Positions 8,767-48,330 of a DNA stretch of 64,000 nucleotides are shown here, in pieces (position 1 is the stretch's first letter; every line of letters starts with the position of its first letter). The stretch comes from Octopus vulgaris (lineage: Eukaryota). The position numbers were made by a program, and so were the translations under genes. Under the pieces are notes generated by a model. That model had not been told where the DNA came from, did not search any database, and saw only the letters and a list, made by a program, of their open reading frames with translations. The DNA lies in NCBI GenBank assembly GCA_951406725.2, contig OX597815.1:115196001-115260000 (forward strand). Reading direction: 5' to 3'.

Positions 8767-8944
8767 AGGGAGAGTTTACAAAAAAAACAAAAGACGAAGA
8801 CAGGTGGTGTACAAAACAAACAGATGTATTAGTATAACGCTCAGGAATTGAAAAAGTCTTTTACGTTTCGAGCCTATGCTCTTCTACAGAAAGGGACACA
8901 GAAAAAACAAGGAGAGAAAAAAATGTGTGTAGTGGCTAACGATC
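8767..8944 (-). mobile_element. Short hammerhead-motif element, family A copy 1 (Penelope pLTR-like), inserted in (TA)n
   Basis: Minus strand: CTTT-CTGTAGA-A-GAGC-ATAG-GCTC-GAAAC-GTA-AAAG (8857-8893). Homologous to 32709-32915 and 48122-48330. TA repeats on both sides. Confidence 0.6.
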
Positions 8945-8960
8945 TATACACATATATATT

Positions 8961-9103
8961 GGGGTGGTTGGCATTAGGAAGGGCATCTAGCTGTAGAAAC
9001 TCTGCCAGATCAAGATTGGAGTCTGGTGCAGCCATCTGGTTCGCCAGCTCTCAGTCAAATCGTCCAACCCATGCTAGCATGGAAAGCAGACGTTAAATGA
9101 TGA
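8961..9103 (+). mobile_element. RTE LINE 3' tail fragment
   Basis: ggttggcattaggaagggcatc...cgtccaacccatgctagcatggaaagcagacgttaaa(tga)n. Confidence 0.85.
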
Positions 9104-9234
9104 TATGTGTGTGTGTGTATGTATGCATATATATATATATATATATATATATATATATATATATATACATGCAAAACAGGTTTCTTTCAGTTTCTGTCTA
9201 CCAAATCCACTCACAAGACTTTGGTTGGCCAACA

Positions 9235-9930
9235 ACATCTCATATATGTCTCCACAGATGTCTCGTGCAAGGAAGTGGATCCAGATATGCCTTGCTTTCA
9301 TATCACTATCATATTGAATGGAAGTGCATAGATTCAGAAATGTCTCAAAGATATTTGACGGATGTTCTCAGTTATATCCAGCAAATATCTTTCAGGTATT
9401 TTTACTGGTGCTCCACAGCACAAATCTTACATGTATCTACCCTATGTCCTTTTTAATTCCTTACATATGTCTTATCTCACAAATGTCTTACTCTCACAGA
9501 TATCTTATTACAATTTTCTTGTAAATATCCTTACAGATGTCTTCCAGATTATCTCAGATATGTTGCTTCCTATAAATTTGTACTACATATGTTCTCACTC
9601 ATTTATCACAGATGAATATCCCATAGATGTATCCTAGATGTCTCACATATATAACCACAGGTATCTTCATAAATTTTCTCAAATATGCCACATAGGTCAT
9701 CTCACAGATATCTTCACAGATGTCTCCATAGCACTGTCATCACAAGCAACTTCATACTTTTATCCTTTTAAATGTCTACCAGATGTTCATACTGATATTC
9801 CATTAAAGTCCATCTTATGCGTTTCCATAGATGCTTTCAAAGACGTCTCACAGATATACTACTGATAACTCCATGAATGTCCAACATATACCCTCAGAGA
9901 CCATTTCTCAGATATCATCAAAACTGTCTT
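9235..9930. repeat. Degenerate minisatellite built on a short (c)acagat(a/g)tct unit
   Basis: Many spaced recurrences of cagatatc/cagatgtc/agatgt over about 700 bp. Confidence 0.55.
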
Positions 9931-45554: not shown

Positions 45555-45730
45555 ACACACACACACACATGATTGGACCTTTTTTAGTTTCCATCTACAC
45601 AATCCACTCATAAGGTTTTGGTTGGACCAAGGCTTTAGTTGAAGAATTTTGCCCAAGGTTCTATGCAGTGAGACTGAACTCAGAACCATGAGGTAAGGAA
45701 GCAAACTTCTTATCACACAGTCACACCCAT
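45555..45730 (-). mobile_element. SINE family 1, 5' half
   Basis: Reverse of gggtgtgactgtgtgataagaagtttgcttcc..gagttcagtctcactgc..ccttgggcaa..gagtggattgtgtagatggaaact. Confidence 0.7.
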
Positions 45731-46419
45731 GTCTATATCCACATCAGTATCTATATCCAAATATAACAATATCTTAGTGTTAGTCCCCTACCACTCATCT
45801 AGTAACATCAGGTGAATAGGGATCTTGATAAAAGATCTCCATCTCTCATAGGCACAAGTTCCATTATGAGTGTGCACCCAGGCCAGGCTTCCTCCTCAGT
45901 CCTCAACCAGCTCTTGGTAAGTCTGTTATATCTCCTGCATCCATTTTCTGGCTTCCAACAATATAACAACTAAAATATTTTCTTATATTCAAAACTTTTC
46001 TGTAAATGAGAAAGATGCAACTGTGATGTTTCATAAGTGCATTGATAATGAAAACAAAATCAGTGCCAAATGGGAATTGAAACTGGAGTGAATATGAACA
46101 ACTGGCTTGCAAACAACATGCTGTCAGTTTTAACAGCAATGATATGCATACCCACAAGATACAAATGAGAACAAATACAGTTTTGCCAATTGCTCTGTTG
46201 AAACATTATTTAATTAGTAACAATGTTTTTTGGTGAATGCTCACCTATATTTTCCTTTCTTCTTCCCCATGCCACTTTTACCTGGTCTCATTAGCATCTT
46301 TCTCATACTTTCATTCAGTTACTTGTTCTGCTTCTACATATAGTCTACCCTTCAGATAAAGCTGCTTCCCATGTCATATAGACTCATAAGGCTGGTTCCC
46401 ATGGATTCTGTGGTATATA

Positions 46420-47315
46420 TAAGAGGGTACCCAAAAGAAACCCAAATTTTACAATATTATTTAATTCACTCAGTTTTACATTTATCCTTTTATTGCCTTC
46501 AAAGTATCCTCCATGTGAAGCACTGCATTGGTCCAGGTACATTTTCCACTGTTCGAAGCAGTGCTGGAACTCTTGTGAAGTGATGCCTTTTAAAGCCTTT
46601 GTCATTTTTTCTTCACCTCTTCCACATCTGCAAATTCCATAGCACCAGCTTTCATCACCAGTGGTGACCTTCAAGGAAAGGTCCAGATCAACTTCCAACT
46701 GTTCTTTTAGTTCATGACATATACTCAGTCATGACTGCTTTTGGGCTTCCATGAGCAAGCAATGAACAAATTTTGCTATAACTCTTTTCATTTGCAATTC
46801 CTCATTCAAAATTCATTGGCAGGAGCACCAGGACACATCAATCATATCAAGTTTGTCAATTGTTTGGTGACGATCCTCCAAGATCAATTCATGAATTTTC
46901 ATGTTTTCACATGTTCAGGAGGTCAATGGTTGTCCTGAACAAGGTTGGTCTTCAAGCAACAAGTGACCATTCCTGAAACATGGAAACCACTTGTAAACTT
47001 GTGTTTTTCTCATGGTAGCATCCTTGTAAGCAGTTTGAAGTATGACAACTGTTTTGGCAGCGGTTTTCCCCAGCAGAAAACAGAATTTCATAGAAGCACA
47101 CTGTCTAGTCATTTCAGCCATCGCAAAAATTGGCAAATGGGGGAGAAGCACAGCAAAACAAAGATGCACCGTGTGACAGTAAACTTAACCAGATGTCGCT
47201 GGTTGGTGCACTGATGCCTGAGGGACACATCAAGTGGCTTCTAGTGGCAGAAGCGTGAACTACAATGGGTTTGTTCCACAGAGAACATTTCCAATTACTA
47301 TTGGGTAGCTCCTCA
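46420..47315 (-). mobile_element. Internally deleted mariner (irritans/Hsmar2-like)
   Basis: ORF 46915-47169 MKFCFLLGKTAAKTVVILQTAYKDATMRKTQVYKWF..FRNG...LEDQPCSGQP is a mariner HTH. ORF 46384-46698 joins TGDESWCY directly to the C-terminal EFQHCFEQWK. TIRs gagggtacccaaaag / ctattgggtagctcctc. Confidence 0.85.
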
Positions 47316-48121
47316 TATGTTCTCCACTAGACAGGACAAAAGTCTGTCAAAGGAATACTCATTTTTGTTAGCTGAGTGGACTGGAGCAACATGAAATGGA
47401 GTGCTTTGCACAAGAACACAACTCATCGCCCAGTCCAGGAATCGAAACCACAGTCTTACGATCATGAGTCCAACACTCTAAACACTAAGCCATGTCCTCC
47501 ACAGTCCACTCTTCAGATAAATGTTAACAAATGTATACGTGTCTATGCACACACACACACACACACACACACACATACACACACACACATATATATATTG
47601 TCCCATTTATACATATATATATATATATATATATATATATATATTGACCCGTTCTTGTCCCATTTTGTATTTTATATATATATATGTGTGTGTGTGTGTG
47701 TGTGTGAGTGTGTATTATTGCTTTCTAAGAATAGGAACAAGGGCTCATGTTTTATGGGAGAATTATGATCAGCTAAATCAACACCATTTCCTACTTGGTT
47801 CTTTATTTTATTGACCCTCAGAATTATGAAAGACAATGTAAAATGTTTTAACCAAATACATGAAGTATTTCCCTGTCCTTATTTCATAGCTGTTTGACTA
47901 AGAAGCTCACTTTGTAACCATATGCTTTCAGGTTAATTTCTACTGTGTGGTGCCCTGGGCAAATGTCTTTTAGTATAACACCAGGCTGACCAACACCTTG
48001 TGAGTGAATATGGTGAATGGAAGCTATGTAGAAGCCCTTGCATATATATATATATATATATATATATATAGATATATATGATTATACACACACACACACA
48101 TATATACACATTCCAAAATGT

Positions 48122-48330
48122 AACTATATATGGATTGTTGGTGCTTTTTTCCCTCTGTCTTCCTTTTCTTTTGAACTTCCCCTTGTCTCCTGTTTCTGAA
48201 GAAGAGCTTTGCTTGAAAAGTAAAACACCCTTTCTTTCCTTCCCTGACCATCTTATTATTACTTTACATGTACCATATCCTCACATGGTTGTTTTTTCTT
48301 GTCTTTTTTTCCTCTGTTTTTTTTTTTTTA
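48122..48330 (+). mobile_element. Short hammerhead-motif element, family A copy 3
   Basis: TGTTT-CTGAAGA-A-GAGC-TTT-GCTT-GAAA-A-GTA-AAACA (48191-48227). Pyrimidine-rich flanks homologous to 32.7-32.9k. TA tracts at both ends. Confidence 0.6.

Follow-up and report, generated by a model that had tools for sequence, protein, structure and literature searches.

Which kind of element accounts for the short, sequence-unrelated hammerhead motifs that lie beside (TA)n tracts within one stretch of the Octopus vulgaris genome? The stretch analysed, referred to as the window, comprises 64,000 nt (C2:115196001-115260000) of the 2.8-Gb assembly of 227 contigs which served as search target. A first-pass annotation had interpreted the motifs as diverse non-autonomous retrozyme-like families gathered at one locus and mobilised by proteins like that of a neighbouring, decayed Penelope-like element (PLE). 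We consider it very probable (roughly 0.88) that the short elements are the 3' ends (pseudo-long terminal repeats, pLTRs) of at least four different PLE families together with a coding-free 486-nt tandem unit, each with a predicted minimal hammerhead and each likely an independent insertion into (TA)n by target-primed reverse transcription. The elements are:

8767..8947, minus strand: A1, 5'-truncated 3' end (pLTR) of a PLE of apparent Neptune type; predicted hammerhead of type I layout at 8856-8895 (minus)
13838..14449, plus strand: B, 1.25 copies of a 486-nt tandem unit (unit 13964-14449), 3' end on (TA)8; predicted hammerhead of type I layout at 14244-14311 (plus)
15280..15910 (left boundary approximate), no single strand: C, two 3' ends of a PLE with apparent Hydra-type endonuclease motifs, inverted head to head; one predicted hammerhead per palindrome arm (15.3-15.9 kb), cores at 15583-15589 (minus) and 15702-15708 (plus)
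22058..22215, plus strand: E, 3' half of a hammerhead at 22139-22215, to which a piece of the element's own tail (22058-22141) is attached in inverted orientation; the family is the 3' end of a PLE of apparent Hydra type
28653..28952, no single strand: D, head-to-head inverted pair of PLE 3' ends; one predicted hammerhead per palindrome arm (28.65-28.95 kb), cores at 28818-28824 (minus) and 28863-28869 (plus)
32709..32916, minus strand: A2, related subfamily with a U4C-core hammerhead, predicted in type I layout at 32807-32845 (minus)
48131..48330, plus strand: A3, related subfamily with a canonical CUGAAGA core and a stem III decayed to AAGU; predicted hammerhead of type I layout at 48190-48228 (plus)

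The hammerhead layouts are present where the annotation had placed them, in A1, A2, A3, B and both arms of C and of D, and all elements flank (TA)n or (TATG)n. The three A elements, which had been listed as one family, are indeed related, but their mutual identity of only 53-65% makes them three subfamilies.

Continuation of four of the short elements into Penelope-like open reading frames

All six elements with which the genome was searched (A1, A2, B, C, D and E) are dispersed repeat families. The first look returned 2,126 candidates for A1, 3,557 for A2, 3,467 for B, 310 for C, 1,048 for D and 940 for E, counts which are lower bounds, 40 candidates having been scored per family. The nearest copies are 96-99% identical to A1, 95-96% to A2 and to B, 75-88% to C, 80-89% to D (both arms) and 73-93% to E. 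Walking upstream in other copies of A1, C, D and E leads into an open reading frame (ORF) encoding a PLE reverse transcriptase (RT) and/or GIY-YIG endonuclease, from which it follows that the window copies are 5'-truncated or 5'-inverted PLE ends at (TA)n; the link to PLEs proposed earlier thus stands. Same-strand PLE ORFs are matched upstream in 8 of 30 A1 loci (those of the upstream walk), 10 of 30 single-arm D loci, 3 of 26 E loci, 2 of 30 C loci and none of 30 B loci. With respect to the arrangement of endonuclease-bearing (EN+) PLEs, in which RT is followed by GIY-YIG in continuity with the end, A1 and D are represented by pieces of both domains and C and E by the endonuclease only, while B has neither. 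The distance from the stop codon to the predicted hammerhead is about 70 nt for D, about 0.4 kb for E, 0.7 kb for C and 1.0 kb for A1.

For A1, a search with the next 121 nt leads through a C/T-rich stretch of about 1 kb to an ORF end which contains YIDD, a CX4CxxC linker and a GIY-YIG region with CxxC between GIY and YIG (GIY-YIG E 3e-4, slightly below the curated cut-off); the first 30 A1 loci, none of which is long enough, show no ORF link (0/30). Read against the clade definitions of Craig et al. (2021; PMC8557442), the CX2-5CxxC linker and the CCHH motif suggest that A1 belongs to the Neptune clade. The ORF linked to D matches Pfam RVT_1 (E 7.8e-10) and has four relatives at 41-53% identity, one of which (P0004) carries RVT_1 followed by GIY-YIG. 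Among named proteins, the closest relative of one of the linked proteins comes from Octopus bimaculoides (53%). In family C, the endonuclease end of one locus (L075) passes into an untranslated region (UTR) that is collinear, at 85-86% identity, with the upstream parts of two further loci (L085 and L088); extension upstream of L085 yielded no ORF because that copy is truncated. The C endonuclease lacks CCHH and has CxxC before the conserved E, its linker lying outside the locus and its CxH being decayed. E has a CxCX5C linker, no CCHH (no CxxC between GIY and YIG), CxxC before the conserved E and likewise a decayed CxH. By these motifs E and C would fit the Hydra clade of the same definitions, whose RT motifs RWK and DKT lie beyond the sequence reached. 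A Nematis-type label for C and E was dropped on the clade definitions.

The ends of the genome copies behave alike, in that 3' ends are fixed and lie on (TA)n while 5' ends vary. The 3' junction of A1 carries (TA)3 in 26 of 30 copies compared to a background of about 5%. A (TA)n tract is found within 130 nt of the 3' end in 28 of 30 B copies and within 140 nt in 27 of 30 D copies (background 26% at 130 nt), within 60 nt in 18 of 30 C copies (background 13%) and within 120 nt in 16 of 26 E copies. Targeting of (TA)n, part of the earlier interpretation, is supported. Most A1 and A2 copies stop within about 50 nt of one 5' position. A fixed 5' end, at which the search had hinted for A1, was ruled out by reading of the flanks for A1 as well as A2; in the latter, the ends in 20 flanks and other copies are spread over about 100 nt, which resembles a truncation series. 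Inverted arrangements, already suspected from the window, are seen in C, D, E and B. A second, inverted arm accompanies D at 15 of the 38 places found with one arm and none is shown at the remaining 23; the palindrome centres differ between copies, and of 30 B loci no fewer than 11 have an inverted 5' piece. The organisation of pLTRs, with 5'-truncated copies in partial tandem or inverted and an optional tail, is thus present.

Tandem copies near the element are found in only one of 30 A1 loci. In that context we note locus L003, where three ribozyme-bearing A1 stubs follow one another at spacings of 226 and 194 nt; such a short tandem would offer dimer cleavage a natural substrate. As a further observation, 20 of 30 D copies (window position about 28900; loci L218-L247) bear a splice-donor-like AG/GTAAGT about 10 nt past the hammerhead. 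PLE pLTRs are known to hold introns.

Hammerhead layouts, cores and folds

A strict type I descriptor matches the window four times compared to 0-3 times in 20 shuffled versions (17 of which give 0 or 1, mostly 0). Decay or register keeps it from recognising A3, B and one of the two arms in C as well as in D. An Rfam scan of the window at E<=5 returned 143 matches with no hammerhead family among them. Across the genome copies of the families the stems are preserved. Stem III is palindromic in A1 (ACGU), C (ACAGCUGU) and D (AUAU); the stems differ between families, and within family A one compensatory change is evident: among 63 distinct A-type cores, pair 4 of stem I is C-G 40 times and G-C 14 times.

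Positions are given in the usual hammerhead numbering. The first-pass annotation had attributed a CUGANGA core to all families, which holds for A3, B and C but not for A1 (CUGUAGA), A2 (CCGACGA) and D (UUGAAAA). Compared to the canonical C3U4G5A6N7G8A9 with GAAA, D retains the 3-8 pair as U-A through a double change, A1 deviates by A6U and A2 by U4C. These cores are family properties: CUGUAGA is found in 27 of 30 A1 copies, UUGAAAA in 28 of 30 D copies, CUGAYGA in 26 of 30 B copies and CUGANGA in 16 of 30 C copies (6 unmatched), and the A2-type CCGAYGA in 10 copies. U6 is present in 71 of 88 A-type cores (the A1 searches bias this sample), and each of the four bases is found at position 7; in the A1-type cores that position is likewise free to be any of the four while C3, G5, G8, A9, GAAA and the stems stay fixed. 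An extra nucleotide follows A9 in the A elements (an A in A1), in D (a U) and probably in C. The A1 hammerhead, with predicted cleavage after 8862, belongs to an element ending on (TA)7, and that of C has a long stem II.

The element at 22.15 kb, described as a degenerate fifth hammerhead, contains the 3' half of the ribozyme, but the 5' core is missing from the window copy. The core initially assigned to it was rejected, as the core is located upstream in other copies, where stem I has 5 bp and stem II 9 bp. Cores are readable in 15 of 26 E copies and are mixed (CCAAAGA 4, CUGAAGA 4, CCGAAGA 1, and others), a mixture which would fit CpG decay of CCGAAGA. For B, the register proposed earlier gives -2.9 kcal/mol, and it is replaced by a fold at -12.1 kcal/mol with a 4-bp stem III (AUCG-GUC-CGAU), a 6+3-bp stem I and predicted cleavage after A14300; the exact stem III stretch is found in 20 of 30 copies.

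Family B, a coding-free unit

The B unit measures 486 nt (478 nt in locus L053), and all pieces aligned in 30 loci can be placed on it in direct or inverted orientation. Where a copy reaches beyond the unit start, as three do, it runs on into the unit end, and 13 copies pass the unit end into the unit start. Two fixed 3' ends about 95 nt apart are used, giving 17 short, 11 long and 2 cut tails among 30 copies, a pattern which matches the tail that an Anolis PLE produces in vitro from two start sites. No same-strand ORF lies upstream in any of the 30 loci. The description of the short elements as non-autonomous families is therefore apt for B, which is a short coding-free tandem unit with one hammerhead each as in retrozymes, but not for A1, C, D and E, which run into PLE ORFs. 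Two consecutive ribozyme-bearing units, another mark of retrozymes, are not seen: in none of 30 loci (the best 30 of at least 3,467 candidates) do two complete B ribozymes follow each other on the same strand at unit spacing. Among sequencing runs listed as containing B, none is of RNA. Four contig sets cover the unit, and two of them, one probably of RNA and one large and of unrecorded type, contain the joint of unit end and start; in such data circles and genomic tandems are indistinguishable.

B behaves like a non-autonomous PLE derivative or a retrozyme-like unit. Since no tandem of two complete ribozymes is seen, we do not class it as a proven retrozyme. Copies that wrap around the unit and end at either of two fixed 3' positions, like the PLE "tail", make it likely that a PLE protein copies B in trans from tandem or circular RNA.

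Density of hammerhead insertions in the window and in the genome

To the first-pass annotation, the co-location of several hammerhead families in one locus had appeared special. As control we used twenty 10-kb stretches (200 kb) at fixed positions on contigs C1-C5. The descriptor matches them 17 times, compared to 0-1 times in five shuffles; 12 matches, in four insertions (the L248 array, the L250 and L260 pairs and L258), look real and five are doubtful. BLAST added A-type and D copies to this tally. Relative to the control the window shows 0.74-fold raw matches (P 0.79), 3.1-fold credible insertions (P 0.10), 2.3-fold A-type copies (P 0.23) and 2.7-fold whole-ribozyme insertions (P 0.07) or, half copies included, 2.7-fold insertions (P 0.049), values which ignore that the window was selected for richness and that degenerate copies are detectable only for families known from the window. 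Tracts of (TA)6 or longer are not enriched (37 per 64 kb in the window versus 67 in the control). A mild excess is possible, but the co-location stays within about threefold of the control; a dedicated cluster is not needed and the locus is not special. The seven whole-ribozyme insertions in 200 kb extrapolate, from five contigs sampled, to roughly 40,000-200,000 genome-wide; hammerhead-bearing PLE stubs are a routine, dense component of this genome.

Three of the control loci deserve mention in their own right. L248:1917-4926 (C1 near 20.00 Mb) is a tandem and inverted array of a 359-nt unit at 98-99% identity with seven canonical hammerheads and an ACCGGU stem III, classically retrozyme-like and unrelated to A-E. 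L250:4950-5950 and L260:7450-8350 each hold an inverted pair of a further hammerhead family, that of L260 with a U3-A8 core.

The neighbouring PLE remnant

The following feature had been proposed as a relative of the mobilising protein:

17405..18514, plus strand: decayed end of a PLE ORF with many stops and frameshifts, into which an unrelated repeat is inserted at about 17790-18085

A decayed PLE-like ORF does exist here. A GIY-YIG region is recognisable by motif, as is a region which we take to be the RT thumb. The remnant's sole relative (P0010, 56%) carries a GIY-YIG match at E 2.6e-4, and comparison with a protein atlas places the remnant in a GIY-YIG cluster at 0.88, which is a lead only. 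Pfam searches with five stop-free pieces gave nothing informative, a homologue search with the remnant gave no match, and a profile built from nine PLE proteins failed to detect it. Its nearest copies are 65-82% identical, compared to 95-99% for those of A1, A2 and B. Tblastn with ORF pieces derived from A1, D, E and L087 finds no match in the window, and in the 30 loci of the remnant no A-E element lies directly behind the ORF, three A-type matches occurring in two loci. As the remnant is old, unrelated and without an A-E element behind it, a mobilising role is not supported; it is an older, unrelated PLE and a bystander. Its relatives at loci L152-L169 have, by eye, a decayed hammerhead-like stretch of their own about 250-300 nt past the ORF, some with a UUGAAAA core.

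Assessment of the possible explanations

Several observations weigh against the identification of the elements as PLE ends with hammerheads. Among the retrieved loci of all families, none contains a full-length intact ORF. The link to PLE ORFs covers A1, C, D and E; A2, from whose 20 fetched flanks and other copies no ORF was reached, and A3 are not traced to one. The upstream search from B returned no loci, and the absence of ORF links in its 30 loci is weak evidence in itself, as the first 30 A1 loci gave the same result. In one C locus (L087) a second, different endonuclease of Neptune type abuts the UTR; it is probably a nested insertion. Clade names rest on motif reading and not on a tree, and should be taken as provisional. 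The hammerhead fold of B is not that of minimum energy (-12.1 versus -19.6 kcal/mol), and the covariation in stem I is a single event inherited by many copies. Finally, the window may be 2-3 times richer in such insertions than average (P 0.049-0.23 on four of five counts).

According to the earlier interpretation, each of the short elements would belong to a non-autonomous family of dedicated retrozymes that PLE proteins resembling the adjacent remnant mobilise; in form this holds for B. It could also draw on the preferred 5' stop of most A1 and A2 copies, as short templates could circulate too, and on the publication of retrozymes as PLE derivatives (bioRxiv 10.64898/2026.07.22.740005). We nevertheless regard it as improbable, since the continuity of A1, C, D and E with ORFs refutes it for these as families, the 5' ends are staggered rather than fixed, only one of 30 A1 loci has tandem copies nearby and the remnant is old and unrelated. 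Still far less credible is that the motifs are chance matches and the C and D palindromes miniature inverted-repeat DNA transposons. The lack of an Rfam hammerhead match, the up to three descriptor matches in one shuffled window and the palindromic form of C and D in the window would agree with it, but palindrome centres vary, most D places (23/38) show one arm only, single arms run into RT/GIY-YIG ORFs and one layout is shared by unrelated families whose stems differ; ORF continuity and variable inversion points refute it.

If the elements are PLE ends, the question is whether their altered cores still cleave. Tentatively, a young and very abundant lineage of Neptune type may have fixed A6U across several subfamilies and still cleave, as a dimer or with protein assistance, U4C having arisen separately in A2 and probably in E. 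It is about as conceivable that the altered-core hammerheads, A1 above all, no longer cleave and that their fold serves as a protein-binding or structural signal or is a passenger. In line with such a loss, A6C and U4C reduce activity in vitro (PMC3088659), catalytic mutants left insertion by an Anolis PLE in vitro unimpaired (PMC11167929), and of the Xenopus dimers reported only one of nine cleaved. The pattern of the A1-type cores, in which position 7 varies fully between otherwise fixed residues, speaks against it, as do the 3-8 pair maintained in D and the report that U4C sustains viroid infectivity.

For the PLE ends, known PLE biology suggests that the GIY-YIG endonuclease would nick (TA)n and that the RT would prime near the pLTR end and usually drop off early, leaving mostly stubs of 100-300 nt which happen to hold the ribozyme; a strand switch would yield the palindromes of C, D and E. 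The ribozymes might then cut a tandem precursor RNA, as dimers or with the help of protein, from tandem source copies only. As the C and D ribozymes face opposite strands, a transcript would hold one sense copy paired with its own complement and no dimer in cis, and the isolated stubs and opposite-strand palindromes of the window are likely inert.

Relation to known systems

The system is already published: minimal hammerheads in PLE pLTRs were reported by Cervera and de la Pena (2014; PMC4209133), with the molluscs Lottia and Crassostrea in the supplement. New are the family members, a few of which have unusual ribozyme variants, and we found no description of the present families. The published hammerheads resemble those of the window in their type I layout with a short stem I, a palindromic stem III and one additional nucleotide between 9 and 10.1. 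Shared too are the large number of mutually unrelated families in one genome, whose copies are for the most part solo and derive from truncated PLEs, the opposite-strand pairs 100-700 nt apart and the U3-A8 variant, reported for Schistosoma PLEs. Differences are that the two supplement files searched have no octopus entry, that A6U and U4C are unmentioned in the main text covered, and that 70-90 nt separate the two halves of the core in C and E. As role of the cut, the same paper proposes processing of tandem precursors or circle formation. Core variants A6C, U4C and U3-A8 are covered in PMC3088659.

The EN+ PLEs of the Neptune and Hydra clades (PMC8557442) share with our elements the C-terminal GIY-YIG, 5' truncation, inverted 5' copies, the optional tail and the preference for (TA)n, in addition to the motifs of A1, E and C described above (for C, the last two of those named for E); unlike their clade assignment, ours is by motif, and D and the window remnant are placed in no clade. 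In the supplement of that study "Octopus" is matched four times, and the two rows viewed are both Naiad. Animal non-LTR retrozymes (PMC7229834; bioRxiv 10.64898/2026.07.22.740005) resemble B as coding-free tandem units with one type I hammerhead each; those of mussels measure 350-390 nt and produce circular RNA. B differs by its 486-nt unit, by copies mostly shorter than one unit, by the PLE-type two-site 3' ends and by 5' inversions. The Poseidon element of Anolis carolinensis (PMC11167929) is similar to B and the PLE ends in its two RT start sites giving a tail, its AT-rich target and its protein-assisted hammerhead; it is autonomous, and its tail measures 30-40 nt compared to about 95 nt in B.

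In giant squid 235 Rfam hammerheads have been counted. A 2026 repeat annotation of octopus lists recently active PLE families and does not mention ribozymes in its main text (PMC13282606), so that many stubs may sit among unclassified short repeats. Our searches of the literature on hammerheads together with Penelope, octopus, cephalopod or A6U found neither the present families nor a natural A6U hammerhead; work by Lunse et al., which reportedly deals with PLE hammerhead variants cleaving as dimers, lies outside this scope and may list A6U or U4C.

The remaining interest lies in the A6U core fixed in a young, abundant lineage and in family B. Should the A6U lineage indeed cleave, it would represent a natural active core variant of which the literature searched has no report; canonical, A6U, U4C and U3-A8 ribozymes would then be available as a matched set within a single genome, in addition to a non-autonomous unit with PLE-type two-site ends. 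Natural variants of the core that have become fixed in successful lineages make the role of PLE hammerheads testable.

Other features of the window

An abundant SINE-like family which starts with (CAT)n often lies beside the same (TA)n tracts (13782-13834, 21633-21940, 33730, 35990, 48530, 61770 and others). Long inverted repeat pairs (77-87%) at 34324-35227 and 40434-41334 and at 42408-43701 are probably copies of other transposons. At 53396-53534 (plus strand), an Rfam match to U4 snRNA of 50 bits (gathering threshold 46) runs into (ATT)n and is likely a truncated U4 retrocopy.

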